This document shows positions 28,667 through 52,127 of a stretch of 54,321 bases of DNA, piece after piece. The position numbers and the translations under genes were made by a program. Origin of the DNA: a virus; UHGV virus genome UHGV-0135730; one strand, written 5' to 3'. Under the pieces are notes generated by a model. It had not been told where the DNA came from and ran no database searches. It saw only the letters and a list, made by a program, of their open reading frames with translations. Every line of letters starts with the position of its first letter. The stretch's first letter is position 1.

Positions 28667-28694
28667 AACCCCGCGCGAAGCGGGGTTGTTTTTT
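28667..28694. terminator. Bidirectional rho-independent terminator
   Basis: Hairpin CCCCGC-GCGAA-GCGGGG flanked by A-run and T-run. Confidence 0.7.
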
Positions 28695-31600
28695 AACCTG
28701 AGAATGTACCAGAACCGCGCGACACAATGACAGTCGGCGAGTTTATATATGCCCCCTTACTATTTTGAGCGGATACACTAATTATCACTGTAACGCTCCT
28801 GTTAGCTACTGATGCTGCGTGCATAACAAGGCGCTCTTCGCCAGTCATAGAAAGTTGTTTCTGCGAACCGCTGATGTTTATCGTACATCCGCCGAAGCCC
28901 TTAACGTTTGCTATGACACAAACATGTCGGGCGTATGCTGCGTCTGTTGTATCGTAGTACTGAATTGTTTTTTGCAATACGCCATTTTGTAACCTGCTAA
29001 CGTCAGATCCCGTATACATGTTCGCAACGTCACCGATAAATGTCTTCGCTTCCAGTTGTCCTGAGAATTTACCGTTGGTTGCGTACACTGTACCGTTAAA
29101 CACCCCATCATTAGCGTATACCGTGCCCCTTATTGTTGCCTGGTTAAATACTGCTGCACCGTTTTTGTTTATCGCCCAGCCTGTACCGTTTTCCCAGCTG
29201 TAATTACTGGATTGTATTTGCTGAGCTATTTTTGCAGTAGTGATCGATGCGTCTTTAATAAACGCTTCTTTCACATACATTGCACCGTTAGACACATAGA
29301 ATGGCGTTGTATATGTGCCGTTTGCAGCCGTCATCAACACGAAGCGGTCAACAAGGAAGATACACTGCGATTGGACGTTAGTACCGTTGCCAGTCAGCCC
29401 AAGCGACATACCTGTCGCATACTTCATGCCGTTGTTGTCGGTTGCCAGCTTGATGGAATACGTCGCATCGACATTACCTTTGAAGTCGGTTAACGCTTTC
29501 GAAGTAGTCTGTATAGCTGTTGTGTTCCCGTTAACGGTCACTGTTAGCTGATCGATTTTGCTTGATAATGCCTCGTCAGCCGTTGCCATTGTCTGTGACC
29601 ATTCTGTAATACTTGAGTTTACAGAATCGAAAGACGCTGAGATCTGGCCGAATTTTTCCGCGCTTGATGCCTCATGCGTAGAAAGCGCCGTTGATACCTC
29701 AGACACCTTCGAGTTAATCGTACTGGTAAGCGATGAGTTAAGGTTACTTATCGCGTCAGTGCGTGCCTTCGTTTCGTCAGCGACGGCCTTGTCGAGACGG
29801 TTAACGTTGCTTGTCACTTTGCCATCAAGGGTTGAAATTGATGCGTTCACGCCAGTGATGGCTTGTGCTCTGGCGCTGGACTCGTCAGCAATCGCCTGGT
29901 CCAGTCTGCTAACCTCGGATTCAGTGTTGCTTTCGAGGGTGTTAATGCTCGCATTCACTCCACTGATAGCTTCTGTTCTTGCGCTGGTTTCGTTGGCAAT
30001 AGCCTGATCTAAACGTTTAACGCTGGCGTCGGTTTTCTTGTCGAGCGCTGAAATGCTTGCGTTAACGTTGCTCACCGCCTGGCTGCGTGCGTTGGTTTCG
30101 TCAGCGATAGCCTTATCGAGACGTGAAACGCTGGCATCGGTTTTCTTATCAAGATCCGTGATCGATGCTTTTACCACGCCGATTGCTTCGGCTGTAGCTT
30201 TTTTCTCTTCAGCGATAACACTGTCAATACGATCAATCTGCGCGCTTGTTTCCTTGCGACCTTTCTTGTACTGGGCCGTAAGCGTAACACGCGTGTTGGT
30301 TTGAGCGATTGAGTTGTTAATCAGAGCAATAGATGCGTTTTGCAGGCTTGCTTTGGTCTGGCTTATTTCGTCGCTGTTCTTGTCAACGTTATTTTCAACC
30401 TTGCCAAGCTCGGCGCTGATTCCAGATATAGCCTGAGCACGGGCGCTTGATTCGTCAGCAATAGCCTGGTCTAAGCGTTTTACGCTGGCGTTTGTGTTAC
30501 TTTCGAGCGTTGTTAAATCAGCTTTAACCTCTGTTATTGCGTCGCTTCTTGCCTGCGTTTCATCTGCTATTGCTTTATCGAGTCTGGAAACGCTGGCGTC
30601 TGTTTTGCTTTCAAGGTTGCTTATTGATGCTTTCACATCGCTCACAGCCTGGGCGCGGGCGCTGACCTCGTCAGCAATAGACTGGTCAAGGCGTTTAACT
30701 GCCGAATTGGTGTTACCTTCAAGCGTGTCAATACTTGCTTTGACACTACTGATAGCTTCAGTTCTTGCACTGGTTTCGTCTGCTATTGCTTGATCCAGGC
30801 GTTTAACGCTGGCGTCGGTTTTCTTGTCAAGCGCTGAAATGCTTGCGTTAACGTCACTGACTGCCTGTGTGCGGGCGTTCGTTTCGTCTGCAATAGCCTG
30901 ATCAAGTCTATTGACGCTGGCATCGGTTTTCTTGTCGAGATTGCTTATTGATGCGTTCACGCCGTTAATTGCTTCGGCGCGGGCACTGGTTTCGTCAGCT
31001 ACTGCGCGTTCCACGCTGGAGATCTGACCCTTGAGGTTGGAATCCATCGTGTTCATTTCTGCCGTGATGGTTTTCAGAGATTCAGCCGTGGCCTGTTTCT
31101 CATCAGCAATAACGTTGTCAATGCGGTCAATTTCAGCCTTCGTCTCTGTCCTGCCTTTCTTGTACTGTGCAGTGAGAGTAACCCGCGTGTTGGTCTGAGC
31201 AAGGGAGTTGTTGATAAGTGCCAACGACGCGTTTTGCAGGCTTGCTTTTGCTTGCGCCAGTTCACTGCCAACTTTTTCGCTGGATACCTCCAGAGAGTCT
31301 ATTCTTGCCTCATGCTGTCCAATATCGTCGGCGTTTTCCCCAACCTTTTTGTAAAGATCTTCCGTCTCTTTTTTCAGTGTGTCCGTGTCAGCTTTTATGG
31401 CCCCTGTTTCTGTGATTAGGCCGTCCGTATCAGTCCTCAATTCGTCAGTGATGTTTGTCAGGTTGTCAGTGTCAACCCTTAAATCGTCAGTGATGTTTGT
31501 CAGGTTATCAGTTGCAGTTTTGAGGCTGTCAGTAGCGTCTTTAAGGTCATTTGTAGCGCTTTCGATAAGGTCGGCGCGGTTGCCAAGATCTTCAATATCG

Positions 31601-34077
31601 CTAATCATGCCCTTGAACTGCTCTGACCCCATGACGTCCTTCATCACGTAGTCGCTGATTTCGTCAAAGTTTTCAGTCGGTTTACCTGATGCCTCAACGA
31701 AGTCTGACACACCGAAAGCGTTACGCGTGCGCACATAAACGTAATAGGTGTGGCCCGTGTTCATGCCGCCAAAAGTCCATTGGTAGCCGCGCCCGGTGAA
31801 TTGCGCCAGCGTGGTTACTTTTGACGGGTCTGTGATCTGATTCTCACCTGAGTAGTAAAACTCATATGCCGTATCAGTGGTCAGCGTTGTTTTGCTGATC
31901 GGGTAGACTGTTGCCTGGAAGACGCCCGGAATCCAGTTGACTCCAATCGGGGCCGCTGGCGCACCAATAACCAGGTCAACAATACTTTCCGCACCCTTCA
32001 TACCAGTGTCATTACGCCCGCGAATACCAAGCGTGTAGCTGCCAGCGTTGAGGCCATAGAAATCATAACGGTAATTCGTGGTTTCATAAGTTGCCACTAC
32101 ACGCCCATCTGCGTTATATACGCGGATTTCAAAGGTCAGGCGATGCGTTGTTGTCTGTGTTTCCCACGTTGCGCGGCATTGAACCGTCTCAGAACCAACA
32201 TTTAACACCCTCAGGTTTTCGATGTTCGGAACGCGGAAGTGATTAAGCGTGTCGTTGTTTACCTCGAAGATTGCACCTTCATCAACTACAGCCTGTTTAT
32301 GCGGATCGTGCTGTGCAGCCTCAATGGTGTACACGCTGTTATTTTCGGTTTCCGCTACACTGGTAATTCGGCACAGAACCGGTTTTGCAGATTCAGTAGA
32401 CACGGCGAATACGGTTCCGTTGCGGATCCATGCTGGCGCTGCCGCAAGGGTAATATTGTTTCCGTTAACCCCAGTGATCTGATGTTTTTTAAACTTGCCA
32501 TCGCTGTCCAGCAAGCTGATGGTGTCACCAGCCGCCACCAGGTCAGAATCAACCTTGTCTACAGTTATTACTTTCCCGTTATTCGCCACGATGCGACCGC
32601 CTAAACGAGCGCCTGCGCGGTTATTGTCGAGTATCTCGATAATATCCCCTGGGGTGAAGTGAATTGCGTCACGGGCCATTTTAAACGTGAATTTTGAGGG
32701 TTCGCGTTTTGCTGTTTCTATCAGCCATTTGCCTGCGCGGTACGCCTGCCCGCGTGATGTGCAACCAAAAGCCTCCAACGTGGTTTCGTTGTAACCATCG
32801 CGGGCGATCAGTTCATCATCTGCCACGTATTCTTTTGATTGTTCCCAACCGTTTTCCGGGTCAGTCCATGATACGATCACGGCGTTGTAAGATTCTGCGC
32901 GAGCGATACTTGAACGAGTGAACGCGCCATCAACGACGTTAGCATTCGTGATGGTGGCAATTGGATCCTGAGGCGCATCAATCATCACAGTAAGGCGCTG
33001 CCCGTCCCATAACGCGATACCACGGAACATGCCCGCAATGTTGTCCAGCAAGTCGCGTGCGCTCATTTGCTCAGTGATGTATGCGTTAAGCGTCATGCGT
33101 GGTTCAAGGCCACCGTAACCGTCGTTTACCAACTGGTCGCAGTATTGAGAAAGCGTATACAGTGCGCCGTCATCAACGTCGATGTAACCAGCGTGGCGGG
33201 CAAGCCCGAAGCGTTCATTTTTAACCAGATACCGGAAAAGCCATGCAGGGTTGTTGGTATATGCCTTTTTAAAGCCACCAAGCCATAAACCTGAATATGT
33301 GCGCGTTTCCGGGTCGTAGTTATCAGGCACGTCAACAATCAGACCGCGCATGTGATAGGTACGTGTCGGCGTGTCAGTATACTGATCGTGGTCAATTACC
33401 GCGCCTGCTACAGCGGTGTGAGGATAAGATAAATTATCGTCGATTATCTCGCTGTAACTGCTCCACCTGGTGTCATTGCGAAGTAGATCGCTTTTGCTGT
33501 CTGGCGTTATGCGACGAACGCGGATGTCAAACGGTTTTTCATCCGGTGCCTGGATGATATGCGCTTCCATGTACTCGCCGCTTTGCTTACCAGGGCCAAT
33601 GGTAATGCCTTTAACAATTGACCATGTTGTTGATGATGAAGGCTTAACGTCAACAGCCAACGTAACAGATGTGTTGTATTGATTGCCTTTATCATCTGAC
33701 TGAACCAGAGAATCGACACCAAGATTCAGCCTTACGCGGTTAACGTTTGGATCTGAAACGGTTCGGATTATTGGTGTATCGTAAGTCACTTTTGCGTTAA
33801 CAATAACGGTTGATTCAATGGCGTTGAATCCGTTGATTGGTGACTGGTCTGCCGTACCATTACGCCACGCCACGCTGACGCCGGGGACTGATGTATTACC
33901 GTTGGCGTCAGTGATTGGGCTGTCATTAAGCATTACGCTGTTTAATGGCGCTTTCTGGTTTACAGGTCCATAGATTGGGCCCTCGCTGAGAATGTCCAAA
34001 ACGCGATAGAACTGTTTATGGAACAGGTTATCGTTTAATAGTGTTGGTGTTTTGGCTTTGCCGCCGCCGCTACTCAT
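28693..34077 (-). CDS. Central tail fibre / host-specificity protein (lambda J-like) with inserted coiled-coil repeat region
   Basis: 1794 aa; N-terminus MSSGGGKAKTPTLLNDNLFHKQFYRVLDILSEGPIYGPV parallels lambda J; central 36-aa tandem repeats; J-like C-terminal domain. Confidence 0.8.
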   Translation of the reverse strand: MSSGGGKAKTPTLLNDNLFHKQFYRVLDILSEGPIYGPVNQKAPLNSVMLNDSPITDANGNTSVPGVSVAWRNGTADQSPINGFNAIESTVIVNAKVTYDTPIIRTVSDPNVNRVRLNLGVDSLVQSDDKGNQYNTSVTLAVDVKPSSSTTWSIVKGITIGPGKQSGEYMEAHIIQAPDEKPFDIRVRRITPDSKSDLLRNDTRWSSYSEIIDDNLSYPHTAVAGAVIDHDQYTDTPTRTYHMRGLIVDVPDNYDPETRTYSGLWLGGFKKAYTNNPAWLFRYLVKNERFGLARHAGYIDVDDGALYTLSQYCDQLVNDGYGGLEPRMTLNAYITEQMSARDLLDNIAGMFRGIALWDGQRLTVMIDAPQDPIATITNANVVDGAFTRSSIARAESYNAVIVSWTDPENGWEQSKEYVADDELIARDGYNETTLEAFGCTSRGQAYRAGKWLIETAKREPSKFTFKMARDAIHFTPGDIIEILDNNRAGARLGGRIVANNGKVITVDKVDSDLVAAGDTISLLDSDGKFKKHQITGVNGNNITLAAAPAWIRNGTVFAVSTESAKPVLCRITSVAETENNSVYTIEAAQHDPHKQAVVDEGAIFEVNNDTLNHFRVPNIENLRVLNVGSETVQCRATWETQTTTHRLTFEIRVYNADGRVVATYETTNYRYDFYGLNAGSYTLGIRGRNDTGMKGAESIVDLVIGAPAAPIGVNWIPGVFQATVYPISKTTLTTDTAYEFYYSGENQITDPSKVTTLAQFTGRGYQWTFGGMNTGHTYYVYVRTRNAFGVSDFVEASGKPTENFDEISDYVMKDVMGSEQFKGMISDIEDLGNRADLIESATNDLKDATDSLKTATDNLTNITDDLRVDTDNLTNITDELRTDTDGLITETGAIKADTDTLKKETEDLYKKVGENADDIGQHEARIDSLEVSSEKVGSELAQAKASLQNASLALINNSLAQTNTRVTLTAQYKKGRTETKAEIDRIDNVIADEKQATAESLKTITAEMNTMDSNLKGQISSVERAVADETSARAEAINGVNASISNLDKKTDASVNRLDQAIADETNARTQAVSDVNASISALDKKTDASVKRLDQAIADETSARTEAISSVKASIDTLEGNTNSAVKRLDQSIADEVSARAQAVSDVKASISNLESKTDASVSRLDKAIADETQARSDAITEVKADLTTLESNTNASVKRLDQAIADESSARAQAISGISAELGKVENNVDKNSDEISQTKASLQNASIALINNSIAQTNTRVTLTAQYKKGRKETSAQIDRIDSVIAEEKKATAEAIGVVKASITDLDKKTDASVSRLDKAIADETNARSQAVSNVNASISALDKKTDASVKRLDQAIANETSARTEAISGVNASINTLESNTESEVSRLDQAIADESSARAQAITGVNASISTLDGKVTSNVNRLDKAVADETKARTDAISNLNSSLTSTINSKVSEVSTALSTHEASSAEKFGQISASFDSVNSSITEWSQTMATADEALSSKIDQLTVTVNGNTTAIQTTSKALTDFKGNVDATYSIKLATDNNGMKYATGMSLGLTGNGTNVQSQCIFLVDRFVLMTAANGTYTTPFYVSNGAMYVKEAFIKDASITTAKIAQQIQSSNYSWENGTGWAINKNGAAVFNQATIRGTVYANDGVFNGTVYATNGKFSGQLEAKTFIGDVANMYTGSDVSRLQNGVLQKTIQYYDTTDAAYARHVCVIANVKGFGGCTINISGSQKQLSMTGEERLVMHAASVANRSVTVIISVSAQNSKGAYINSPTVIVSRGSGTFSG
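29560..31560. repeat. In-frame tandem repeats within J-like gene (about 108-bp units plus a higher-order duplication)
   Basis: Repeated units encoding ...KKTDASVKRLDQAIADETSARTEAISGVNASI...; duplicated block encoding LTAQYKKGR... at about 30260 and 31160. Confidence 0.75.
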
Positions 34078-34090: not shown

Positions 34091-34621
34091 TTAACTTACA
34101 ACGTCAAGGGCGTCTCTGTTGTTACTTGTGTCTATGCCTAACGACCCGACATTTGAACCTATTTTCATTTCACCCAACAGGATCGGCACTGGTCTACCCT
34201 GGCCTACCTTGTTTTCAACGCTGGTGTATGTGTTGTTAGATATGGTGTTATCTTGTGCGCTTTCTGCTGATGTTTTTATCTTCATGTTGCGTGACATAAA
34301 GATCGAGAATGCAACGCTAACAACCGAAACACCAATCAAAATCCAGCCTACAACGCCAATCCCCGCAATACCACCTTCCACAACTGGTGCAACAATGACT
34401 GTGGTTCCGTCCGGGTATTTACTGTTAACCGCTGCGGGCGCGGTCTTTTCGTCATAATCTTTCCCGGCAATCCTCAGGCGCAAAGGGGTATTTAAAAACG
34501 CCTTCTTGAACTCATGATTCTGCGCAACCAATAAGTTAAGACCTTGCGCTGGCGTATCAACGTTCAAACACACCTTGCCGTAATATCTTCGAAGATTGCC
34601 CGTAAATCTAAACTTGAGCAT
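34091..34621 (-). CDS. Tail assembly protein I-like
   Basis: 176 aa, position between K and J, hydrophobic central segment. Confidence 0.6.
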   Translation of the reverse strand: MLKFRFTGNLRRYYGKVCLNVDTPAQGLNLLVAQNHEFKKAFLNTPLRLRIAGKDYDEKTAPAAVNSKYPDGTTVIVAPVVEGGIAGIGVVGWILIGVSVVSVAFSIFMSRNMKIKTSAESAQDNTISNNTYTSVENKVGQGRPVPILLGEMKIGSNVGSLGIDTSNNRDALDVVS

Positions 34622-35295
34622 TTGTCAGATCTCCATATTGAATTGGTCTGTCGAACATACGCGGGCCGCATTTGCTCGCGGCGGCTTAACAGTCCGGCAT
34701 TGTCATGATGCAAAACAGTGTTATCGCCCAGGTAAATCATCGCGTGGCATGGGTCAGCGCCTTTAAACGGCTGGCGGATAATCACGTCACCGGGCTGAAT
34801 GCTTTGCGCGTCAACCATGAAAAACCCGTTCAATGGCAGGTTCTTTATGTACAGGTTTTCCCCACGCAGCCACCACCCGTCGTGGCGTTCAAAGTCAGGC
34901 AGATCCACGCCGCATAGGTGATAGGCGTCACGGAAAAGCGAATAACAGTCTGTTTTCCCGTGCTCAAATTTACGGCCTAACAGGTGCGCCACTGGGCGGA
35001 ATTTTCTCACCCTGCCACCGGAGCACAAAAACCACGGCAGGCCGGAAATAACCTGCTGTTGTCGATCCCGCGCTGACAACACCAATGAATCATTAGTATG
35101 TGAGTGGAAAACAGCTGTTATAACGCCCAATTCGTCAGCTTTGATATAATCGTCAGGAGAGATTTTAAAACTGTTGTGCGGCGTTTCAGACACGTTAGCG
35201 CACGGGTAAAAATAATCGTTATCTATCACCAGCCCGCACACTTCCTCGCGCGGGTGGGCTGCCGCATAGCGAATCATTTTATCTTCAAGTGCCAT
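34564..35295 (-). CDS. Tail assembly protein K-like (MPN/JAMM plus NlpC/P60)
   Basis: HSHT JAMM-like motif (FHSHTNDS) and C-terminal Cys/His peptidase-like region; start at MALEDK. Confidence 0.7.
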   Translation of the reverse strand: MALEDKMIRYAAAHPREEVCGLVIDNDYFYPCANVSETPHNSFKISPDDYIKADELGVITAVFHSHTNDSLVLSARDRQQQVISGLPWFLCSGGRVRKFRPVAHLLGRKFEHGKTDCYSLFRDAYHLCGVDLPDFERHDGWWLRGENLYIKNLPLNGFFMVDAQSIQPGDVIIRQPFKGADPCHAMIYLGDNTVLHHDNAGLLSRREQMRPAYVRQTNSIWRSDKCSSLDLRAIFEDITARCV

Positions 35296-35297
35296 AA

Positions 35298-36002
35298 TTA
35301 ACCGACCTTGCTTGATCCGGGAAAACATGAAATTGGTAACGGATTGGGGCGCGGGAAACGCAAACGGCAACCGCTCAGGCGGTGGCTGCATTTATCCAGC
35401 TTTGGATCGCTGGTCGATTCGTCTTTATCTGTAGCTACAGGGCCGCCACTGTATCCGCAACCGTCGCCCCGGTATTGCCACTGGCAAACGTCAGCAAGGA
35501 TTGTGCGCCCAGGAATAACCGCCTTGTCAGCATCAATTGGCGTTGACAGTTCATACTGCACCTGGTCGGCTGTTTCTTCGCTCATCGCCTCAACGACGTA
35601 AAAAGATACAGCCTCGATAGATGGATCTGCATCCGGGTTGCCGTTGGGGAAATTAACGGCGTCCAGGTATTTTACTTCCACTTGGCGGCGCGTAACCTTC
35701 ATTCCTCGCAGGTCGTTAAAATCGTTGTTCATCCCGGTGATTAGCCCGCCAATGTTGGCTACTACCATTTGCGGGCGCGAGTAAACGCCTTCGTTTTTCA
35801 TTTCGAAGCCAGTAGCCTCGATTGGGTAGCTGTTGTAAGTCACTCCCTTCCAGATAACCGGGCCGTAATAACCATTCGCGCCGGAATGGAAGCGGATAAC
35901 CTCGCCACCCAGGGGTGTGAGGTCTAATTCAAACAGGTCAATTACCGCGCCGACTCCGGCATCGACGGAATCAATAATCATTTCTGTAGGTATGGTGCGC
36001 AT
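35298..36002 (-). CDS. Minor tail protein L-like
   Basis: 234 aa, position and C-terminal Cys cluster as in lambda L. Confidence 0.65.
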   Translation of the reverse strand: MRTIPTEMIIDSVDAGVGAVIDLFELDLTPLGGEVIRFHSGANGYYGPVIWKGVTYNSYPIEATGFEMKNEGVYSRPQMVVANIGGLITGMNNDFNDLRGMKVTRRQVEVKYLDAVNFPNGNPDADPSIEAVSFYVVEAMSEETADQVQYELSTPIDADKAVIPGRTILADVCQWQYRGDGCGYSGGPVATDKDESTSDPKLDKCSHRLSGCRLRFPRPNPLPISCFPGSSKVG

Positions 36003-36020
36003 TTTATCACCTTGTCATTT

Positions 36021-36084
36021 TGTGATCGCCATCACGCTAAATCATACCAAAACGGTTGATCGCGTTTTTTACAATACGTATATT
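36021..36084 (+). promoter_or_regulatory. CRP-like palindrome plus sigma70 promoter for cargo cassette
   Basis: TGTGATCGCCATCACG (36021-36036) centred about 62 bp upstream of predicted start; TTGATC-17-TATATT at 36056-36084. Confidence 0.5.
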
Positions 36085-36100
36085 GTACTCAAAAGGAAGC

Positions 36101-36286
36101 ATGGTTAACAAAATGGCGCGGAGGTGTGAGGTGGATGATAAGGTGTGGAGGTTGACGGTGTTCCTTAGTGATGGCAGGAAAATGACTGTAGCTCTGTATA
36201 AGGATGAAGGCGAGGCACTGACTGACGCGCTTTTACTTGCTGAAGACGATCGCGTTTTGGGGTACAGGATCGAACCTGTCAAATGA
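36101..36286 (+). CDS. Hypothetical protein (cargo cassette)
   Basis: Start at MVNK with AAGGAAG RBS. Confidence 0.5.
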   Translation: MVNKMARRCEVDDKVWRLTVFLSDGRKMTVALYKDEGEALTDALLLAEDDRVLGYRIEPVK

Positions 36287-36298
36287 GAGGTTAACGAA

Positions 36299-36646
36299 AT
36301 GCAAAAATATAGTCTTGATGTGTGGTTAAGTGGTTGCAAGGAGTGTTTCGGATTATTTGATAGCGAAGAGGCAGCTTTGGAAGAAGGAAGGATTCTTGAA
36401 TGTAGTTTAGGCCATCCAGTGAAATATGCTGCTAATCCGGTGCAGGTAAATGATGAGGTGGAAAACATGAACCCGAAAGATATTAACTTTAACGTCAATG
36501 TTGAATTTGCAGGCTCTATGGATCAGGCTTGCCCTGGTGAAATCCACGCAAAAGGCTTCCCGGCTGACGATCCTGAGGCAAAACGCGAATACGAAAAAGC
36601 GGCGAAAGACTTCTGCATTGATAACCTGGGCGCATTCGATAAATAA
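36299..36646 (+). CDS. Hypothetical protein (cargo cassette)
   Basis: 115 aa ORF on strand opposite to tail operon. Confidence 0.55.
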   Translation: MQKYSLDVWLSGCKECFGLFDSEEAALEEGRILECSLGHPVKYAANPVQVNDEVENMNPKDINFNVNVEFAGSMDQACPGEIHAKGFPADDPEAKREYEKAAKDFCIDNLGAFDK

Positions 36647-36655
36647 GGCGGCAAC

Positions 36656-36904
36656 ATGGGGCGGCGCAATCACGGCGATTATGTGTACACGTTGAAACAG
36701 GCCGCCCGCCTAGTTGGTTATCATGAACACGAATTTATTGATTTGCTGATTGAGCGCGGGATACTGTACCAGGTCTGTTTAACGCTGTACCCGAAAGCGA
36801 AATACCTACAGGAAAAGTTATTCATCATCATGACGGATGAAAACCAGGTTAACCATTCATTCGTCACGGATAAGGGCGTTAATTATCTGCGTGATAACTT
36901 ATAG
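36656..36904 (+). CDS. Putative HTH DNA-binding protein (cargo cassette)
   Basis: YTLKQAARLVGYHEHEFIDLLIERGIL resembles MerR/excisionase-type HTH. Confidence 0.45.
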   Translation: MGRRNHGDYVYTLKQAARLVGYHEHEFIDLLIERGILYQVCLTLYPKAKYLQEKLFIIMTDENQVNHSFVTDKGVNYLRDNL

Positions 36905-36914
36905 GTGACAGATT

Positions 36915-37031
36915 ATGAAAATAGAAGTTTTGGCGCTAATAATAATGGGATTGATAGTATTTGGCGTTCATGCTGTAGATCTGGACTGGAAAACGATAGC
37001 GGAAAATATAGCATTAATGGAAATGGAATAA
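36915..37031 (+). CDS. Small hydrophobic peptide (38 aa)
   Basis: MKIEVLALIIMGLIVFGVHAVDLDWKT...; last ORF before terminator. Confidence 0.35.
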   Translation: MKIEVLALIIMGLIVFGVHAVDLDWKTIAENIALMEME

Positions 37032-37034
37032 TAA

Positions 37035-37062
37035 TAACCCCGCTTCTCGCGGGGTCGTGTTT
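37035..37062. terminator. Bidirectional terminator hairpin
   Basis: Hairpin CCCCGC-TTCTC-GCGGGG with flanking A/T runs. Confidence 0.55.
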
Positions 37063-37258
37063 ATACGCCATCAACCAAAAATAAAACCTCCTTCCCTTCC
37101 CGGGATCTACACCCCACGTACCCATCGCCAACGTCGTGAAGATACCATATATCGCCGTTGTCAGCTTTTACAGTAAGGTCGTTGATCTCATAGTCGTCAA
37201 ACAATGTAAAAGCGTAAGTTTTGTCAACTACACAAGTCCCGTACATAACAACCCCCAT
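37061..37258 (-). CDS. Hypothetical protein downstream of M
   Basis: 65 aa ORF, start overlaps M stop. Confidence 0.4.
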   Translation of the reverse strand: MGVVMYGTCVVDKTYAFTLFDDYEINDLTVKADNGDIWYLHDVGDGYVGCRSREGKEVLFLVDGV

Positions 37259-37611
37259 TAGCCAACAACTTGTTCAAACGTTGCGTTTAGCGTGTACACA
37301 GGCCCGTCTTTGGTCATGCTCCAGCTACGGCAAACGAAAAGCCTTTGCACCCCGTCGATCGATGGAGTCCAGTAAAACGCCTCGACAGCGCCGCGCGCCC
37401 TCAAAAATGCTTCGGCCTGGATCGCCACGTTTCCACCATCACCACATCCCGCGCTACTGCCTTTGAAAACCAGGGTGTAACTATCAAGCAACGTGTTAAT
37501 CCCTTTCGCCTGGCGCTGTTCATAACCATCACCAAGTTTAACGACAGACACATTTGGTTCCCTGGTCACGCTGTAGCTTCTTTGCGGCGTCCATCTGAAA
37601 ACTTCTGGCAT
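37258..37611 (-). CDS. Minor tail protein M-like
   Basis: 117 aa; position after tape measure; GGGGG RBS. Confidence 0.65.
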   Translation of the reverse strand: MPEVFRWTPQRSYSVTREPNVSVVKLGDGYEQRQAKGINTLLDSYTLVFKGSSAGCGDGGNVAIQAEAFLRARGAVEAFYWTPSIDGVQRLFVCRSWSMTKDGPVYTLNATFEQVVG

Positions 37612-37639
37612 GATTCCCCCTATAAGTTACATATTGCAT

Positions 37640-37668
37640 ACATCTTTACGCGCCTCTACGCGAAAAAT
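37640..37668 (-). promoter_or_regulatory. Conserved 29-nt element upstream of M (second copy at portal start)
   Basis: Minus strand ATTTTTCGCGTAGAGGCGCGTAAAGATGT; near-identical to 49853-49881. Confidence 0.45.
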
Positions 37669-37739
37669 GAGAAATTCATCACAAGAATTATAACCAGTTT
37701 ACAAAATGGCTTCACATAAGGCGTGACAAGATGTATATA
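37668..37739 (+). promoter_or_regulatory. CRP-like site plus TACAAAATGG-type promoter for cargo cassette
   Basis: TGAGAAATTCATCACA (37668-37683); GTTTACAAAATGGC then TTCACA-17-TATATA (37711-37739). Confidence 0.5.
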
Positions 37740-37779
37740 GTAAGCAAGAAGAAAAAGCAGTACCGACAAGGGGGGCAAT

Positions 37780-37935
37780 ATGGAACGCTATGTGGTTGTG
37801 ATGCTGAACAAAGCATTCGAACAGGTGGAAGTTGCGATTGTGAAGGGCTTTGATGATGCATTCAAATACGGTCAATTCATGATGAATGCAAAAGAAGATG
37901 AATACCGTGATTTCTTCCTGAAAGTGGTCAACTAA
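37780..37935 (+). CDS. Hypothetical small protein (cargo cassette)
   Basis: 51 aa ORF. Confidence 0.45.
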   Translation: MERYVVVMLNKAFEQVEVAIVKGFDDAFKYGQFMMNAKEDEYRDFFLKVVN

Positions 37936-37953
37936 TGGATTGCGGGGTGGGTT

Positions 37954-38208
37954 ATGAAATTGGTAATGATTGGTAAAAACCTGAAAGCACAGAAAAACGC
38001 ACAGGACCGGATCATCAAAAAGGGCAAGGCTTTATTAAATGCTTTCCTGAAAAAAGAGGCCAACCCCAAAAAATTACGCGATGGCTACGGTTATAAATTT
38101 GACATCAACCCCGATTGGCGGTTATTCAGCGAAGATTTAAAGATGTGGTTAATTATTGACCACCTGGAATATAACAGGCACTGTGGGGTGAAAGGTGCTC
38201 ACAAGTGA
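37954..38208 (+). CDS. Hypothetical basic protein (cargo cassette)
   Basis: 84 aa ORF. Confidence 0.5.
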   Translation: MKLVMIGKNLKAQKNAQDRIIKKGKALLNAFLKKEANPKKLRDGYGYKFDINPDWRLFSEDLKMWLIIDHLEYNRHCGVKGAHK

Positions 38209-38239
38209 CACGGATTTGAATGTTGCGGAGGAAAACAAA

Positions 38240-38410
38240 ATGAAAAATCCGGCAAATAAAAGCAACGTAAAACGCATAGCCTGGGTGCTAAAATATATGG
38301 ATAGTAAAGGGGATACATATACATGCCCATTTTTCAGGTATACTGACGCGGTATTTGCCAGAAGTGTACACGGAGGGAAAATTGAGAGAGGATATACAAG
38401 ATTTGAGTAA
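38240..38410 (+). CDS. Hypothetical small protein (cargo cassette)
   Basis: Start at MKNPANK with GGAGG RBS. Confidence 0.45.
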   Translation: MKNPANKSNVKRIAWVLKYMDSKGDTYTCPFFRYTDAVFARSVHGGKIERGYTRFE

Positions 38411-38448
38411 ATTTATTCACGAAATCAATAACATGACGAAGGTTAACA

Positions 38449-38628
38449 ATGGTTATTCATGAGACTGAAGAATGCAGAAGTATTAATCTTAGTATTGAAG
38501 ATGACGGGAGATTATGGATCGTTAGCGACTGCGAGATGATTGTAATAGACCAAAAGCAAGCTGACGAACTAATAAGAGCATTACAGCTTTATGCAAACGG
38601 CGAATTTAAAAATGATGAAATTGAATAA
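38449..38628 (+). CDS. Hypothetical small protein (cargo cassette)
   Basis: 59 aa ORF ending at terminator. Confidence 0.45.
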   Translation: MVIHETEECRSINLSIEDDGRLWIVSDCEMIVIDQKQADELIRALQLYANGEFKNDEIE

Positions 38629-38632
38629 AGAT

Positions 38633-38665
38633 AACCCCGGCATTGTACCGGGGTTTTGTTTATTT
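38633..38665. terminator. Bidirectional rho-independent terminator
   Basis: Hairpin CCCCGG-CATTGTA-CCGGGG followed by TTTTGTTTATTT. Confidence 0.7.
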
Positions 38666-41008
38666 CCTGCGAGGTTGCAACATTCCTCCGGGTCGTTGCG
38701 ATTCCCTTGCCATCATTTTCATCGCGACGCGTTCCATCGTCTGTTCAAGTCTGCGACTGTCTTCGTCGCTAAATCCGTTTGTGGTCTGTACGGTGATGTT
38801 AACAGGCATATTGATGCCGCCGCCGCTGAAGAGATCACGGCCAGGAATTACCCTACCATTCTCGCCAGGAATCATATACTGACGCCCGTTGCTCGTCTGG
38901 AATAGCTCTGGGATTCCGTGCTCACCTACGCGATACAGGCTGCCACCATTAACAGAACCACCATTATAACGCCCGCCACCAAAGATTGACGTTGCCAGCG
39001 ACATGATCGCAGAAAGCGCCGCAGCACCAGCCGCCGCCCAGCTACCACCAGTTGACGCCGCAGTCGCCGCCGCCGCTGGGGCCGCCGCCGCTGCAATCTG
39101 GCCTTGTGCCGCTACTGCGCCAGCCGTTGTACTTGCCTGGGTAGCCTTGCTTTGCGTTTCCATCATCAATTGATCTGCTATCCAGTTAGCGGCAATTTCT
39201 GACAGTTTGTTGCCAACGGTGTTAAGTATGCTACTTCCCAGGTTGGCGAAAACCTCGCTTAATGATTGAGTGCCGTTTAGCAGTCCGGTAAGGGCATTAC
39301 CCATGCCACCCTTCAGGCCGCTGACGCACGCACCAATCAGGCCGTTTGTTTCGCTTTGCGCCTGCCATTGTTCCCATTTCAGATCTCTGATCTGTTGTTC
39401 ATATTCCAATAGCGCCTGTTTCTGTTGCGCCTCTGTAGCGCCCAAGTCTATCAGCATTTGTTTGCGAACGGCCCATTCATTTTGTGCCTGCTTGATTGGG
39501 TCAATTTCTCCCTTAAGCTGGTCCATCGGGCTGACTATGTGATCCCATTTGTCGCGTAGCTCATCAACAGGGATTTGCGCCAATTCGTCCTTCAGTTCCT
39601 TGCCTATCCCTTTCTGCGCGGCCTTGTACTCAAGTAGGGTTATTTTGCCCTGGGCGAATGCAGCTTCAATGGCCTTGCCGTTCTCTAATGCTTTGCGCAT
39701 AGCGGCGGCGTCCTTGTTGTACTGGTCGGACACTTTTATGCCTTCATCACCAAGCCGATCAGCTTCAGATTTCTTGTCCTTTTTGCCCTTTTTCCCTTTT
39801 TTAGGCTTACCGACTGGCTGATCGAATCCGGTGATCTTGCCATCGTCAGCCTCATCCTGTTTCTGCATTAACTCATCATAGGCGGCGGTCGCGTTTTTAA
39901 TGTCGTTTGCAAACGTCATGACTTTGCCGACGGTGGGGCCAAATTTTTTCTCGTTGTTGCTGTTTAGCTCTTCCTTGCGTTTATCGACGATCTCCTTCAT
40001 CCACTTGTAACCATCCATTAGCGCTTTGATTGGCGTTACCATTTTGATGATTTCTTCCGCCACCTCACCAGCCTTAACAGCAACGTCGTCAAACATGTCG
40101 ATGAACTCGTTACCAGCGGTTTTAAGTGTGTTGAAACAGGTTGCGGCGAATTTTGCGCCTTTACCCAATCCCTCAACGCCACCAGTGATTAAGTCTATTG
40201 CTGTTACAACGCCGTCAGATATGCCGAAAAGATCATCAAGCTGTTCGACAAGTCCCATAACCTCAACTTTAAGCTCGTTGAAGGCCATGCCGGATGTGCG
40301 AGGCAACTGCGCAAACTTCTCGTTTGTTTCCTGCGTAGCGGCCTGGATCGCGTTAAGCATCCTTTCAGCCGTGATCTTGCCGTCCAGCATTTCAGCGCGG
40401 AACTGACCCATAGACAACCCCATTTGGCGGGCCATTTCCTGTATGATTGTTGGTGTGTTGTCACGTATTGAGTTAAATTCCTCAGCCTGCAACACGCCAG
40501 CATCAATAGCCTGGCGGAACTGAAGCATGGAGTTTGATAGTTGTTCCGCAGACACGCCGCCCAGGTTGCCGAGTTTTTGCAGCGTGCTAACCAGGTTGAG
40601 TACCTGGCCTTCTGTAGCGGATGTGTTTTTTAGCGATATAGCAAGACCTTGCCACAGGGCACCAGTATCCTTGAGGCTTTGGCCTGTTTCTTTTGATATA
40701 TCTTTCAGTCTGTTGAAAACACGTTCCGTGGCCTCCGCTTCACCTGTAAGCAGTTTGATTTTTACGCGAAGCATTTTCGCTTGCTCCGCCATGTCAATAA
40801 ACTGGCGTACAGCCTCCGCAGCAAGTAGCAAATGGATAACCCTGGATAGCGCTTTGATTGAAGTCTTAAGCGTGTTCACCTGGCGGTCAGCGCGTTTTGC
40901 GCCACGCTCGATGCTGTCAAAAGCCTGGTCTGCCTGTCGTTGAGCAACGAGAAGTTGACCAGTTTTTGCATCAACTTCGTAGTAAATTGTACCTAAACTA
41001 GTTGCCAT
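38660..41008 (-). CDS. Tail tape measure protein
   Basis: 782 aa, coiled-coil rich with Gly/Ala-rich segment; between chaperone and M. Confidence 0.85.
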   Translation of the reverse strand: MATSLGTIYYEVDAKTGQLLVAQRQADQAFDSIERGAKRADRQVNTLKTSIKALSRVIHLLLAAEAVRQFIDMAEQAKMLRVKIKLLTGEAEATERVFNRLKDISKETGQSLKDTGALWQGLAISLKNTSATEGQVLNLVSTLQKLGNLGGVSAEQLSNSMLQFRQAIDAGVLQAEEFNSIRDNTPTIIQEMARQMGLSMGQFRAEMLDGKITAERMLNAIQAATQETNEKFAQLPRTSGMAFNELKVEVMGLVEQLDDLFGISDGVVTAIDLITGGVEGLGKGAKFAATCFNTLKTAGNEFIDMFDDVAVKAGEVAEEIIKMVTPIKALMDGYKWMKEIVDKRKEELNSNNEKKFGPTVGKVMTFANDIKNATAAYDELMQKQDEADDGKITGFDQPVGKPKKGKKGKKDKKSEADRLGDEGIKVSDQYNKDAAAMRKALENGKAIEAAFAQGKITLLEYKAAQKGIGKELKDELAQIPVDELRDKWDHIVSPMDQLKGEIDPIKQAQNEWAVRKQMLIDLGATEAQQKQALLEYEQQIRDLKWEQWQAQSETNGLIGACVSGLKGGMGNALTGLLNGTQSLSEVFANLGSSILNTVGNKLSEIAANWIADQLMMETQSKATQASTTAGAVAAQGQIAAAAAPAAAATAASTGGSWAAAGAAALSAIMSLATSIFGGGRYNGGSVNGGSLYRVGEHGIPELFQTSNGRQYMIPGENGRVIPGRDLFSGGGINMPVNITVQTTNGFSDEDSRRLEQTMERVAMKMMARESQRPGGMLQPRRK

Positions 41009-41027
41009 GATTTAACCTCATGAAAAT

Positions 41028-41089
41028 TGTGATCTAGATCTCTATTCTATACAAAATGGCTTCAGTTCAACGAATACATTTTGTATAAA
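41028..41089 (+). promoter_or_regulatory. CRP-like site plus TACAAAATGG-type promoter for cargo cassette
   Basis: TGTGATCTAGATCTCT (41028-41043) centred about 60 bp upstream of predicted start; TATACAAAATGGC then TTCAGT-17-TATAAA. Confidence 0.5.
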
Positions 41090-41165
41090 GAAGATAAAAG
41101 AAAGGGATAGAGCGAAGGGACTTAAAAGGCCGGATTAACCGGAGGAAGCAAAAGAGGATAAGAAA

Positions 41166-41255
41166 ATGAAAAACGTAAACTACCACCCCAACGAGCATGA
41201 GCGTTATGCCGACTTCATCAAAGAAATGTTGAAAGCACTTAAAAACAAAAACTAA
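41166..41255 (+). CDS. Hypothetical small protein (29 aa)
   Basis: MKNVNYHPNEHERYADFIKEMLKALKNKN; precedes secreted-protein gene. Confidence 0.35.
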   Translation: MKNVNYHPNEHERYADFIKEMLKALKNKN

Positions 41256-41267
41256 GCGGGGTGAGTT

Positions 41268-41684
41268 ATGAAACGGTTAATTAGAGCGGCAATGATGGCG
41301 GTAATGGTTGGTTTGGCATTCAACGCAAATGCAAACGATGTAATAAATATAAACTGCGATGAAGTAGCAAATAACGTTGCCGAATACCATAAAATTTTCA
41401 AGAAGGAACCCGCAGCCATCAAGGTTTTTTATAAAGCAATTGACAAGCATTTCGAAGGTAAACCAGTTTATGCAAGATGGTTTAATTATGGGCTTGTGAA
41501 GGAGGCTGCTGTAGGTGTCGTATTCGAAGGTAACAATGAAATAAGAAACAGAATAGCCAACGAGTGCAACGCTGATAAAGCCGCATTTGCTGAAAGAATA
41601 TTTAACGAAGGCGGCGCGGGTGTTAAAAATCATGCTATCGTTGATTTAGGTAACGGCAGAATTGAAATTGTAAGGATCAGATAA
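41268..41684 (+). CDS. Secreted protein of unknown function (cargo)
   Basis: Cleavable signal peptide MKRLIRAAMMAVMVGLAFNANA; own promoter and terminator on opposite strand. Confidence 0.6.
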   Translation: MKRLIRAAMMAVMVGLAFNANANDVININCDEVANNVAEYHKIFKKEPAAIKVFYKAIDKHFEGKPVYARWFNYGLVKEAAVGVVFEGNNEIRNRIANECNADKAAFAERIFNEGGAGVKNHAIVDLGNGRIEIVRIR

Positions 41685-41708
41685 TGAGCACTATCAAAAA
41701 GCATCATC

Positions 41709-41733
41709 GACATATAACGCCCGGTTCTACCGG
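41709..41733 (+). terminator. Rho-independent terminator after secreted-protein gene
   Basis: Hairpin GCCCGG-TTCTA-CCGGGC followed by TTTTTCTT. Confidence 0.7.
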
Positions 41734-42413
41734 GCTTTTTCTTGCTCGCGTTTTTTCATCAATTCCAGCACCCTTTTAGCCGCTCCCATTTGCTCATCAT
41801 AATCACGTTTATTTATATGAACGTTTGGTTTACCTTTCTCGTTTCTTTCGTCTGGCGGCGTTTTAGCGCGTACAGCGGCCCTATATCCGGTCATTGTCAT
41901 GCCCCACGCTTCAGATTCAGACAATCCCAAGTGAGCAACGGCGGAGTAAACATACTCAAGGATGTCGAATGTTGGCTTGTACTCACCTTCCTGGTTTGTG
42001 ACCGTGTCTTCTTCTGGACCGTCACCAATTAAACCGTGATACATACAGTGTTGCGCCAGCGTGATAACGTCGCTGGTGGGCATCAATCCCGGTTTCATTC
42101 TCAACTTACCCGAAGGAGTAAAGCTGCATTCGCCCAATAACGGGCCTATTTCGCATTCTGAGCAACATTTCAGTACGTGGATGGACGTTTGCACCAGTTC
42201 ACCATAACAACGCGCCAGAATGCGATTGCGGAGGTCTGAATCAGTTGGCAAACGTTGTGGGTATCTGCCACCGTGCACCGTTGCGAAGTATTCTACCAGC
42301 TCCCTGTCGCTGCCGATCTTAGCCATTGCAGCAAAGCAGGGATTGAACTCGTAACGTCTGCCATCAACCACAACCGCAAATTGTCCTGTTCGAACATGGA
42401 TCATAACTGTCAC
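41727..42413 (-). CDS. Tail assembly chaperone-like protein
   Basis: Position between major tail and tape measure; basic C-terminus; no frameshift site identified. Confidence 0.4.
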   Translation of the reverse strand: MTVMIHVRTGQFAVVVDGRRYEFNPCFAAMAKIGSDRELVEYFATVHGGRYPQRLPTDSDLRNRILARCYGELVQTSIHVLKCCSECEIGPLLGECSFTPSGKLRMKPGLMPTSDVITLAQHCMYHGLIGDGPEEDTVTNQEGEYKPTFDILEYVYSAVAHLGLSESEAWGMTMTGYRAAVRAKTPPDERNEKGKPNVHINKRDYDEQMGAAKRVLELMKKREQEKAR

Positions 42414-51879: not shown

Positions 51880-51889
51880 AATTCACCTC

Positions 51890-51973: not shown

Positions 51974-51983
51974 TGCTTACCCT

Positions 51984-52119: not shown

Positions 52120-52127
52120 ATATTCAC

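Follow-up and report, generated by a model that had tools for sequence, protein, structure and literature searches.

Accessory cassettes and CRP-type palindromes in the tail operon

The window, i.e., the whole stretch of 54,321 nucleotides analysed, is a complete mEp021-type (mEpimmI) temperate coliphage whose recorded hosts are E. coli. The initial annotation had listed three palindromes in the tail operon as matches to the CRP consensus TGTGA-N6-TCACA. Their strings and coordinates proved correct: site A (TGTGATCGCCATCACG, 36021-36036) and site B (TGAGAAATTCATCACA, 37668-37683) agree with the consensus at 9/10 specified positions each, site C (TGTGATCTAGATCTCT, 41028-41043) at 8/10.

Site A precedes the start codon of the minus-strand tail gene L (36002) by 19 bp and scored 14.1 bits with the CRP matrix, rank 5 of ~54,300 positions. 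On the plus strand, a promoter scan found the predicted promoter P_A+ (36046-36084), comprising the A-rich, UP-like element ACCAAAACGG, a -35 hexamer TTGATC (36056-36061), 17 nt and a -10 hexamer TATATT (36079-36084) that is invariant among relatives. Cassette A (36113-37055, plus strand) has four small ORFs (36113-36286, 36299-36646, 36656-36904 and 36915-37031) and a bidirectional terminator (37037-37055). Its proteins belong to the families phrog_29559, 38567 and 5689; the ORF at 36656-36904 encodes a KilAC/ANT-type domain (Pfam ANT). Some relatives carry a different cassette A content.

Site B precedes the start codon of an M-like tail gene (37611, minus strand) by 57 bp and is the weakest of the three, with 8.9 bits and rank 15 in the window. 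The predicted promoter P_B+ (37700-37739, plus strand) consists of TACAAAATGG (37700-37709), the -35 hexamer TTCACA (37711-37716), 17 nt and the -10 hexamer TATATA (37734-37739), with both hexamers conserved among relatives. Cassette B (37780-38655, plus strand) comprises a 51-aa ORF, a ParE-like toxin (37954-38208; Pfam ParE_like, E = 7e-12) and two small ORFs, with PHROG family assignments, and a bidirectional terminator at 38633-38655.

Site C (15.1 bits, rank 4) precedes the tape-measure gene, whose start codon (41008, minus strand) is 20 bp away. The predicted promoter P_C+ (41050-41089, plus strand) contains TACAAAATGG (41050-41059), the -35 hexamer TTCAGT (41061-41066), 17 nt and an invariant -10 hexamer TATAAA (41084-41089). 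Cassette C (41167-41735, plus strand) encodes a 29-aa ORF and a 138-aa protein (41268-41684). A family search gave no match for the latter, and its N-terminus resembles, by eye, a signal peptide. In some relatives this cargo is swapped for other genes. A bidirectional terminator is located at 41719-41735. Because each of the three cassettes ends in its own bidirectional terminator, each looks like an autonomous moron-type unit.

Promoters were read from conserved hexamers, with the start site assumed 7 nt after the -10. The predicted starts at ~36091, ~37746 and ~41096 place the centres of sites A, B and C at -62.5, -70.5 and -60.5, in agreement with the 60-70 bp upstream originally proposed, a distance measured from predicted start sites only. 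Several centres (-59.5, -60.5, -62.5/-63.5) are 1-2 bp off the canonical -61.5; the start positions rest on predicted -10 hexamers and may be in error by 1-2 bp, or wrong. The cassette promoters are of the sigma-70 type, with a good -10, an imperfect -35 and the A-rich TACAAAATGG element at -46 to -37. The best -35 is that of PL (TTGACT-17-TATATT), a promoter that by eye has no CRP-type site, whereas site-bearing promoters have weaker -35 hexamers. Read as its reverse complement, TACAAAATGG is similar to the flank and left half-site (CCATTTTGT[G/A]...), which could point to a different binder.

A conserved family of sites across the phage

The CRP matrix is an approximate 22-bp matrix, rebuilt from known sites. 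A scan of the window, proposed as a check in the initial annotation, supported the assignment. The top seven scores are all in non-coding DNA, which makes up 8.7% of the window, and range from 12.9 to 16.9 bits; known sites, when scored leave-one-out, have a median of 11.3 bits. The window has 8 sites with up to one mismatch to TGTGA-N6-TCACA versus 1.65 +/- 1.29 in 500 dinucleotide shuffles, one of which reached 8. The non-coding segments (4.4 kb) have 6 such sites versus 0.10 expected and, with up to two mismatches, 9 versus 1.66 expected (0/1000 shuffles in both cases); the nine include a palindrome at 15878 that the CRP matrix rejects with -1.3 bits. Flanks and inner spacer, positions unused in finding the sites, fit CRP with +1.68 bits versus -2.76 bits for random non-coding 22-mers (P ~5e-5).

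Four further sites are located outside the cassettes. Site D (TGCGAGGTAGATCACA, 2358-2373; 16.9 bits, rank 1) is situated between Q and the lysis genes, at ~-60 relative to the minus-strand promoter predicted there (TACGAAATGG, ATTGTT-17-TTATAT). Site E (TGTGATCCGCATCACG, 7333-7348; 16.2 bits, rank 3) is located between a cytosine methyltransferase gene and ninF/ninG. Its centre is at ~-59.5 relative to another predicted promoter of the minus strand (TTGTTT 7315-7310, 16 nt, TATACT 7293-7288), which closely precedes the published nutR2 (boxA ~7272-7245; PMC11893012). Site F (TGTGATCGCAATCACG, 10931-10946; 13.0 bits, rank 6) falls between the two hexamers of a predicted minus-strand promoter (TTGACA 10953-10948, 17 nt, TAAATA 10930-10925); with this promoter prediction, its location is a repressing position. 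Site G (TGTGATCTGTGTTGCA, 28281-28296; 12.9 bits, rank 7) is flanked by the tail-fibre gene (25104-28235, minus strand) and the exclusion-lipoprotein gene (28413-28661, plus strand; family phrog_12984), the Lpp function being taken from PMC11893012. A perfect FNR-type box (TTGATTTTTATCAA, 28323-28336), the sole exact match in the window, follows 42 bp downstream of site G. Relatives keep its half-sites and vary its spacer. With the inferred -10 GATATT (28359-28364), the FNR-type box is at -41.5 and site G at -82.5.

About 40 related phages, all sharing one immunity type, were compared. The half-sites are fixed, and no stretch varies more than the 6-nt spacer: entropy averages 0.20 bits in the half-sites, 0.30 in the flanks and 0.65 in the spacers, and the spacers of sites A-G range from 0.42 to 0.85 bits. 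Site A has 0.02 bits in the half-sites and 0.70 in the spacer (35 unique relatives), site B 0.23 and 0.82, and site E 0.10 and 0.85, with 0.07 in the flanks; the half-sites of site F are less well kept (0.38 bits). Sites B, C, D and G each keep one good half-site in relatives. For site B this is the right half TCACA, the left half being degenerate (TGAGA, TAAGA or TGATA); for site C it is the invariant left half TGTGAT, the right half not being CRP-like. The distance from site to -10 is constant in 40/40 unique relatives for B, 34/34 for C, 12/12 for D and 30/31 for E. For site A it is 58 or 59 nt, and the centre is at -63.5 in 19 of the 35 unique relative sequences. Indels are common downstream of the -10.

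The three sequences are thus real, conserved and not due to chance, and in silico they are supported as protein-binding sites with the geometry and sequence of CRP sites. They are three of at least seven sites of this kind (A-G) at internal promoter regions, with a palindrome at 15824 in the immunity region as a possible eighth.

Predicted control by host cAMP-CRP

E. coli has CRP, a regulator of sugar starvation. The CRP site of lacP1 matches the consensus at 9/10 positions, and sites this near to consensus are expected to bind cAMP-CRP. We consider it rather probable that the three palindromes are functional sites for a dimeric regulator of CRP specificity, most probably host CRP, and part of a phage-wide family, with binder, start sites and direction of the effect deduced from the DNA sequence. 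At high cAMP, CRP bound at about -61 or -71 would contact RNA polymerase through the C-terminal domain of its alpha subunit, as in class I activation. Docking of the alpha domain on the A-rich element would increase transcription of the accessory genes, i.e., the ParE-like toxin module, the KilAC-type protein and the putative secreted protein. The bidirectional cassette terminators would stop this transcription from running into the antisense tail genes.

The initial annotation had proposed that cargo genes are wired to host cAMP-CRP. Conserved CRP-type sites at a fixed distance from the cassette promoters support this part in silico, but a restriction to cargo is too narrow. The family extends to the early/Q region, the pre-lysis region, the DNA upstream of the exclusion-lipoprotein gene and places beside the starts of other-strand tail genes. 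Like sites are found at ~-60 relative to the predicted promoters that precede nutR2-ninG-Q and the lysis region; one is at -82.5 from the putative FNR-type exclusion-lipoprotein promoter and another inside a promoter core. The wiring would therefore extend over the whole phage and may in part be repressive. Host nutrition is thus probably linked to the accessory genes and to part of the phage's own programme. In phage T1, cAMP-CRP acts on several promoters (PMC6737242). This is a precedent for the regulator acting on phage promoters.

Repression, phage-encoded binders and other readings

From the site positions, repression is as readable as activation. Host CRP or another protein may act mainly negatively, by occluding minus-strand promoters or start points of tail L, the M-like gene, the tape measure and, at sites E and F, early genes. 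The position upstream of the cassette promoters would then be secondary. As the main role this is improbable, though a real contender; it may also coexist with activation in a bidirectional switch. Sites E and F fall precisely into 17-nt spacers, those of the promoter-like elements GTCATT...TAATGG and TTGACA...TAAATA, and have their centres at ~-20. On the minus strand, where the start codons of tail L, the M-like gene and the tape measure follow 19-57 bp downstream, sites A, B and C are 0-4 nt past -10-like hexamers (TGgTATGAT, TATAAT, TAGAAT/TAAAAT). The resulting minus-strand centres are +5.5, +4.5 and +1.5, and by this overlap with predicted start points the sites may have a tail-side effect. 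The minus-strand TATAAT at 37687-37692 is invariant in 40 relatives, and the pir, dam and recE promoters of phage T1 are repressed by cAMP-CRP (PMC6737242). However, most of the minus-strand elements are without a credible -35, the -10 on the A side has lost its first T in five relatives, and the strict conservation of spacing is toward the plus-strand -10 elements. The phage also encodes a Q-type antiterminator. By analogy with lambda, Q-modified polymerase could read through the cassette terminators, so that internal tail promoters would not be needed.

Somewhat less probable than such repression is a phage-encoded dimeric protein of CRP-like specificity; small uncharacterised proteins, early or late, would be examples. 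On this reading the sites would form a phage regulon, and their likeness to CRP sites would be convergent or incidental. CRP-type sites occur at 0.11-0.17 per kb in mEpimmI loci versus 0.016-0.059 per kb elsewhere, and the matches in other phage loci fall inside ORFs. A phage-encoded binder would also explain this specificity for the mEpimmI group, and the presence of sites at nearly every internal promoter region is what a phage regulon would predict. TACAAAATGG resembles a half-site plus flank, and many early proteins are without known function. One phage protein has a weak Crp-like HTH match (E = 6.6e-4, below the curated cut-off), but its domain is of the replication-initiator N-terminal type. 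This winged-helix protein, encoded at the cro position, is hypervariable: in most relatives its counterpart is only 32-40% identical, against invariant half-sites. Besides it, the repressor is the sole candidate DNA-binding family in the Pfam summary. In that summary, which covers a Pfam scan of 59 early-region proteins, no cNMP-binding (CRP/FNR-type) domain was listed. The preferences in flanks and inner spacer agree with CRP, and host CRP should bind such sites regardless.

The palindromes are very unlikely to be small RNA or DNA hairpins (e.g., in 5' leaders of tail-gene mRNAs) or recombination linkers at cassette borders. A hairpin would also show constant arms around a variable loop, sites A, E and F allow stems of 5-6 bp (-3.8 to -5.7 kcal/mol) and the sites adjoin borders of variable cassettes, but hairpins fail for three to four of the seven sites (0 to -1.7 kcal/mol for B, C and G, only -1.0 and -3.6 kcal/mol for D), B, C, D and G keep just one half-site in relatives, the arms are invariant and not covarying, with no compensatory changes seen, and an Rfam search gave no match for the sites.

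Equally slight is the chance that the sites are extra, stoperator-like operators of the CI-type prophage repressor, silencing internal promoters in the lysogen. The repressor is conserved (91-97%) in all relatives, and its control region has two CRP-like 16-mers, at 15824 and 15878; the module GCGCCATTATGT precedes the 15878 site and also site E. However, the operator-region sites keep their central bases, with spacer entropies of 0.18 and 0.05 bits, in contrast to sites A-G. The core ACTTGCA occurs three times within 100 bp of the operator region and is absent from A-G, and for PL, an expected repressor target, inspection of the printed sequence by eye revealed no TGTGA-N6-TCACA. The 16-mer at 15824-15839 (TTTGATGCAAGTCACA; 16.7 bits, rank 2) belongs to the cI/PR control region, at ~-60.5 relative to the predicted PR (TTGACC-16-TAAACT). 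A repressor operator is a likelier identity for it than a CRP site, because its central bases are conserved and it has ACTTGCA in common with two neighbouring sites.

Distribution and conservation of CRP-type sites

The three 16-mers that the initial annotation had read as CRP palindromes (sites A, B and C) start at 36021, 37668 and 41028, as it had reported, and match TGTGA-N6-TCACA at 9, 9 and 8 of the 10 consensus positions. Its assignment of the motif to cargo promoters was too narrow. The three sites are genuine, and the motif also occurs outside the cargo at site D (2358-2373, interval between Q and lysis), site E (7333-7348, ahead of nutR2-ninF-ninG-rusA-Q), site F (10931-10946, early intergenic region) and site G (28281-28296, tail-fibre/lipoprotein intergenic region). 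Site F fills the spacer of a TTGACA-17-TAAATA element, a repressing position.

Eight sites with at most one mismatch were found in the whole window, compared with 1.65 expected, and one of 500 dinucleotide shuffles reached eight. Six of them fall in the non-coding 8.7% of the window. The gene list was compiled by hand from ORFs and annotated relatives, which alters the exact non-coding fraction and not the direction of the result. When the non-coding segments were shuffled alone, 0.10 sites were expected and none of 1000 shuffles reached six; sites A to G may have a common ancestry, so the occurrences are not fully independent. With up to two mismatches, nine non-coding sites were present versus 1.66 expected. 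In an unbiased scan for inverted 5-mers at all spacings, TGTGA separated by 6 nt ranked near the top of the non-coding palindromes.

In a matrix scan of the genome, as proposed together with the CRP claim, every one of the seven highest-scoring positions lay in non-coding DNA (2358, 15824, 7333, 41028, 36021, 10931 and 28281; 12.9-16.9 bits). Known CRP sites had a median of 11.3 bits in a leave-one-out analysis with the same 22-bp matrix, which was built from classical E. coli sites and is approximate. Sites A and C scored 14.1 and 15.1 bits. Site B ranked 15th with 8.9 bits and is marginal as a CRP site. The 16-mer at 15878 in the control region of cI and the predicted promoter PR, one of the nine sites with up to two mismatches, scored -1.3 bits, and its reading as a CRP site was dropped.

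Relatives were taken from IMG/VR, all of one and the same immunity type: about 40 covered the surroundings of tail gene L and about 37 those of the cytosine methyltransferase. Seven intergenic regions were aligned. Mean column entropy was 0.20 bits for the half-sites, 0.65 bits for the spacers and 0.30 bits for the 12-nt flanks (seven sites, 12-40 unique relatives each). The spacer is the most variable stretch in each aligned intergenic region and the half-sites are retained, as expected for selection as a binding site. Site A has 0.02 bits in the half-sites and 0.70 bits in the spacer, with 13 spacer variants; the values of site E are 0.10 (half-sites), 0.85 (spacer) and 0.07 bits (flanks). 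Judged from these alignments, the footprint is that of a dimeric protein reading two half-sites 6 bp apart. Natural CRP sites often pair a good half with a poor half, for example the gal site TGTGA-N6-ATAAA. In the relatives, site C retains TGTGAT only, site D retains GATCAC only and site G retains TGTGAT and TT[G/A]CA. Site B retains TCACA, with a degenerate left half.

In sites A (36027-36032) and E (7339-7344), the central four spacer nucleotides exceed every neighbouring non-coding position in variability, and many of the variants make or break GATC. These nucleotides may simply be the one part free of constraint, or mutation may be locally elevated there.

Tail-operon cassettes and predicted promoters

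The interval 35000-42000 is 85-91% identical to the Escherichia phages mEp010, mEp044, mEp554 and mEp021. These form the non-lambdoid, Nus-dependent temperate 'mEpimmI' group (PMC11893012), a family for which chromosomal integration into the host has been demonstrated. E. coli is the recorded host. Of 5426 complete E. coli genomes, 30 carry the region, strains N1286, 190, STEC308 and RM9245 among them. Judged against the records of annotated relatives, the minus strand is a single long transcription direction. It originates at a predicted PL-type promoter (15026-14998, minus strand, TTGACT-17-TATATT), passes an N-like gene, recombination genes, methyltransferases, ninG, rusA, Q and the lysis genes, wraps past the window ends and continues with head and tail genes to 25104. 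The tail genes on this strand include the tape measure (38660-41008), an M-like gene (37258-37611), L (35298-36002), K (34564-35391), I (34091-34621) and J (28693-34077). Plus-strand cassettes A, B and C break the tail operon at about 36113-37031, 37780-38628 and 41167-41684, and a fourth plus-strand gene (28413-28661) encodes a lipoprotein. About 930 bp at 51880-52810, between the small terminase gene and a gp49-like gene, are without a convincing ORF and may be a cos/packaging region or carry small genes. Rfam and tRNA scans of the window yielded nothing.

Cassette A encodes products of unknown families and an 82-aa KilAC/ANT-domain protein. In cassette B (37780-38208), a 51-aa ORF precedes an 84-aa ParE-like toxin (Pfam PF24732, E = 7e-12), and the order of the two makes a toxin-antitoxin pair inside the tail operon probable. 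The 138-aa protein of cassette C has no family match and, by eye, a signal-peptide-like N-terminus. The product of 28413-28661 belongs to an exclusion-lipoprotein family which, expressed from a plasmid, excluded superinfecting phages in experiments (PMC11893012). The functions are thus of the toxin, antirepressor-domain and lipoprotein types. Each of the three cassettes ends in a strong bidirectional terminator, a G+C-rich hairpin with T runs (A, 37037-37055; B, 38633-38655; C, 41719-41735), and terminators are annotated at the corresponding places in the mEp010 and mEp021 records.

Phage morons, as in lambda and HK97, are autonomous units of accessory genes, each equipped with a promoter and a terminator of its own. 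The units described here are likewise small accessory genes among essential tail genes, and the cassettes each have an intrinsic terminator and a promoter-like element with conserved -35 and -10 hexamers of the same design as the predicted PL. Cassette genes differ among the window, mEp010 and mEp021, and alignments diverge 3' of the promoters in subsets of relatives; since the content varies and the promoter regions stay, the cassettes fit the moron concept. One unit encodes the exclusion lipoprotein with experimentally shown function (PMC11893012). Unlike the lambda and HK97 morons, four units lie in one late operon, all against its direction, with one promoter design and a conserved upstream CRP-type site. 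For this phage group, no host regulator has been described as a common input to a set of morons (CRP is not mentioned in PMC11893012).

The predicted PL and the predicted cassette promoters P_A+, P_B+ and P_C+ consist of TACAAAATGG (ACCAAAACGG at A), 0-1 nt, a -35 hexamer, 17 nt and a -10 hexamer of TATATT, TATATA or TATAAA. The TACAAAATGG 10-mer is enriched, with 23 matches at up to one mismatch versus 6.0 expected. Copies lie on the plus strand at 37700-37709, 41050-41059, 7292-7301, 2317-2326 and 36046-36055, and on the minus strand at 15028-15037, 7357-7366 and 2343-2352. Directly preceding the -35 of these promoters, it spans -46 to -37. The proximal UP-element subsite has this position, and the alpha C-terminal domain of the polymerase docks there in class I complexes; docking on TACAAAATGG would be the equivalent step here. 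PL has the best -35 (TTGACT) and lacks a CRP-type site; the site-bearing cassette promoters have the weaker -35 hexamers TTGATC, TTCACA and TTCAGT. A generic promoter scan gave no overall enrichment and detected only P_A+ and PL, so the remaining promoters were read from conservation. The reverse complement of TACAAAATGG (CCATTTTGTA...) looks like the flank and left half of CRP-type sites (CCATTTTGTGATC).

The initial annotation had placed the palindromes 60-70 bp upstream of the predicted cassette start sites and proposed class I activation. With the start set 7 nt past the predicted -10 (near 36091, 37746 and 41096 for A, B and C), on which every position hangs, the sites on the plus strand have predicted centres at -62.5 (A; -63.5 in 19 of 35 unique relative sequences), -70.5 (B) and -60.5 (C), in line with that distance. 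On the minus strand, the predicted centre of site D is at about -60 and that of site E at -59.5 of a predicted TTGTTT-16-TATACT, which closely precedes the published nutR2. Relatives keep the same length between site and -10 (B, 40/40; C, 34/34; D, 12/12; E, 30/31). At site E, the sequence in between is highly variable and its length is constant. Indels are common just 3' of the -10 elements. Within 7245-7293, the boxA-like GCTCTTTAAAAA, the published nutR2, follows the predicted TTGTTT-16-TATACT promoter within a few bases, so nutR2 may serve local transcripts besides PL read-through.

On the opposite strand, sites A, B and C precede the start codons of L, the M-like gene and the tape measure by only 19, 57 and 20 bp, respectively. 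They follow minus-strand -10-like hexamers at a distance of 0-4 nt, with centres at about +1.5 to +5.5: TGgTATGAT (36041-36049) next to A, TATAAT (37687-37692, invariant in 40 relatives) next to B and TAGAAT/TAAAAT (41044-41051) next to C. These hexamers may belong to internal promoters that serve the stretch of tail genes beyond each cassette. If they fire, binding of a dimer would shut them off and at the same time stimulate the cassette promoter. If they are silent, late transcripts would just cross the sites, and Q-modified polymerase should read through.

Candidate binders

The simplest answer for the binder is host cAMP-CRP, which fits the recorded E. coli hosts and has moderate support from the sequence. 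The closeness of the sites to the consensus equals that of lacP1 (9/10). Positions not used in the search (flanks 1-3 and 20-22, inner positions 9-14) scored +1.68 bits with the approximate CRP matrix, compared with -2.76 for random non-coding 22-mers (P about 5e-5).

Binding by a phage-encoded dimeric protein, such as an uncharacterised small one, is improbable. Only this phage group has the enrichment, a restriction that suits such a protein and the capture of a host factor equally well. More distant phages (L046-L082, L120-L161) had no intergenic enrichment, and this does not discriminate between a host and a phage factor. When 59 proteins of the early region were scanned against Pfam, the family summary listed no CRP/FNR-type cNMP-binding domain.

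The CI-type repressor is 91-97% conserved in the relatives. The interval 15822-15922, which lies between the minus-strand gene cI (15151-15798) and the rightward operon, holds three operator-like sequences (TTTGATGCAAGTCACA, TGTAAACTTGCTGACA and ACTTGCAATGATGCAAG) with a common ACTTGCA core. They are conserved throughout, also at the central bases, where the spacer entropy is 0.18 and 0.05 bits, and are probably the repressor's operators. The core is absent from sites A to G, whose spacers are free, and by eye no TGTGA-N6-TCACA is visible in the PL sequence. CI was rejected as the binder because the operator core differs and the operators' central bases are conserved. The CRP-like site at 15824 (16.7 bits) would have its centre at -60.5 relative to the predicted PR, and the conservation of its central bases speaks for the repressor. 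The stoperators of mycobacteriophage L5 are many genome-spread repressor sites, asymmetric, orientation-dependent and identical to the repressor's operator. The sites described here share with them the intergenic recurrence of one short motif across a temperate phage genome. Unlike stoperators, they are symmetric, free in the spacer and distinct from the operator-like sequences at cI. A -10-like TTATAG at 15813-15808 would leave the cI mRNA almost leaderless.

The winged-helix protein at the cro position (16104-16349, first gene of the rightward operon) was rejected as well. Its HTH_36 and Crp-like HTH matches are weak and below the curated cut-off, it has a replication-initiator N-terminal domain type, and it is hypervariable: the product is 32-40% identical in most relatives, and the half-sites meanwhile never change. 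This 81-aa protein is paralogous to the N-terminus of the following replication protein (16371-17363), which aligns over only about half of its length. The variation of both suggests exchangeable origin-specificity modules. Hairpin formation was rejected for three to four of the seven sites, as folding yields 0 to -1.7 kcal/mol for B, C and G and is weak on one strand for D, and the arms are invariant in the relatives' alignments, without covariation or compensatory changes.

Known regulatory systems and the lipoprotein gene

Class I CRP sites are centred at -61.5, -71.5, -82.5 or -92.5, and activating region 1 contacts the alpha C-terminal domain. Promoters of the lacP1 type share with the phage promoters a 22-bp site with 8-9 of 10 consensus positions and A/T-rich flanks, a weak -35 with a good -10, an A-rich stretch at -46 to -37 and centres in this range, here predicted at -60.5, -62.5, -70.5 and -82.5. 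They differ in that several predicted centres are 1-2 bp from the canonical values and that the sites are in a phage genome, overlapping the 5' regions of divergent tail genes. As far as sequence can tell, the mechanism looks like textbook class I CRP activation put on phage morons. The sequence feature is well supported and the mechanism moderately.

In coliphage T1, cAMP-CRP represses the pir, dam and recE promoters, as shown experimentally (Laganenka et al. 2019, PMC6737242). As proposed for the present phage, host CRP is placed at several promoters of one coliphage, tying phage behaviour to sugar supply. The effect in T1 is repression, and the T1 text consulted discusses no binding-site sequence; the sites predicted here are at activating and repressing positions in an unrelated temperate phage. 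The mEpimmI group paper does not mention CRP, morons or internal promoters (PMC11893012), and the literature search found no paper connecting CRP or its sites to mEp021-type phages or to morons.

A wider reading, tentative and rather doubtful as a whole, puts nearly all internal promoters of the mEpimmI group under host cAMP-CRP as compact bidirectional switches, with booster, pre-lysis and FNR parts. A single CRP dimer would activate the moron promoter from about -61 or -71 and cover the start of the divergent tail promoter. Further sites would set the output of the nutR2-ninG-Q booster promoter and of the pre-lysis promoter. Accessory genes and part of lytic timing would then form a gut-tuned regulon that senses catabolites.

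Should this reading of the sites be correct, a group of human-gut temperate coliphages ties accessory genes, including a toxin module and an exclusion lipoprotein, to the host cAMP signal, and the same may hold for promoters that supply the Q antiterminator and the lysis region. This would be a sequence-defined route from diet and carbon supply to prophage expression and would extend the single experimental precedent, phage T1, to an integrating temperate phage family. The approach also shows that host-regulator inputs can be found in metagenomic phage contigs by looking for half-sites that are conserved around a hypervariable spacer. The prediction is directly testable with seven defined 16-bp targets.

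The FNR part concerns the exclusion lipoprotein, to which an FNR box would bring oxygen sensing. A perfect FNR consensus, TTGATTTTTATCAA, lies upstream of its gene at 28323-28336 and is the window's only exact match. In the relatives its half-sites are retained and the 4-nt spacer varies. With a start predicted near 28371, the box would be centred at -41.5 and site G at -82.5, and their distance is kept in 14 of 16 relatives. The arrangement resembles co-dependent FNR/CRP (class III-type) promoters, a likeness that depends on one predicted -10 (GATATT). A TACAAAATGG-type promoter was rejected for this gene due to its poor -10, and the FNR-box reading was adopted instead.

The lipoprotein gene and cassette C have a leader in common (28372-28423 and 41130-41177, respectively). 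It consists of a hairpin, CCGGAT(T/G)AACCGG, a GAGGAT ribosome-binding site and the start ATGAAAAACGT, and both products begin with MKNV. The sequence suggests a common leader module serving different cargo.
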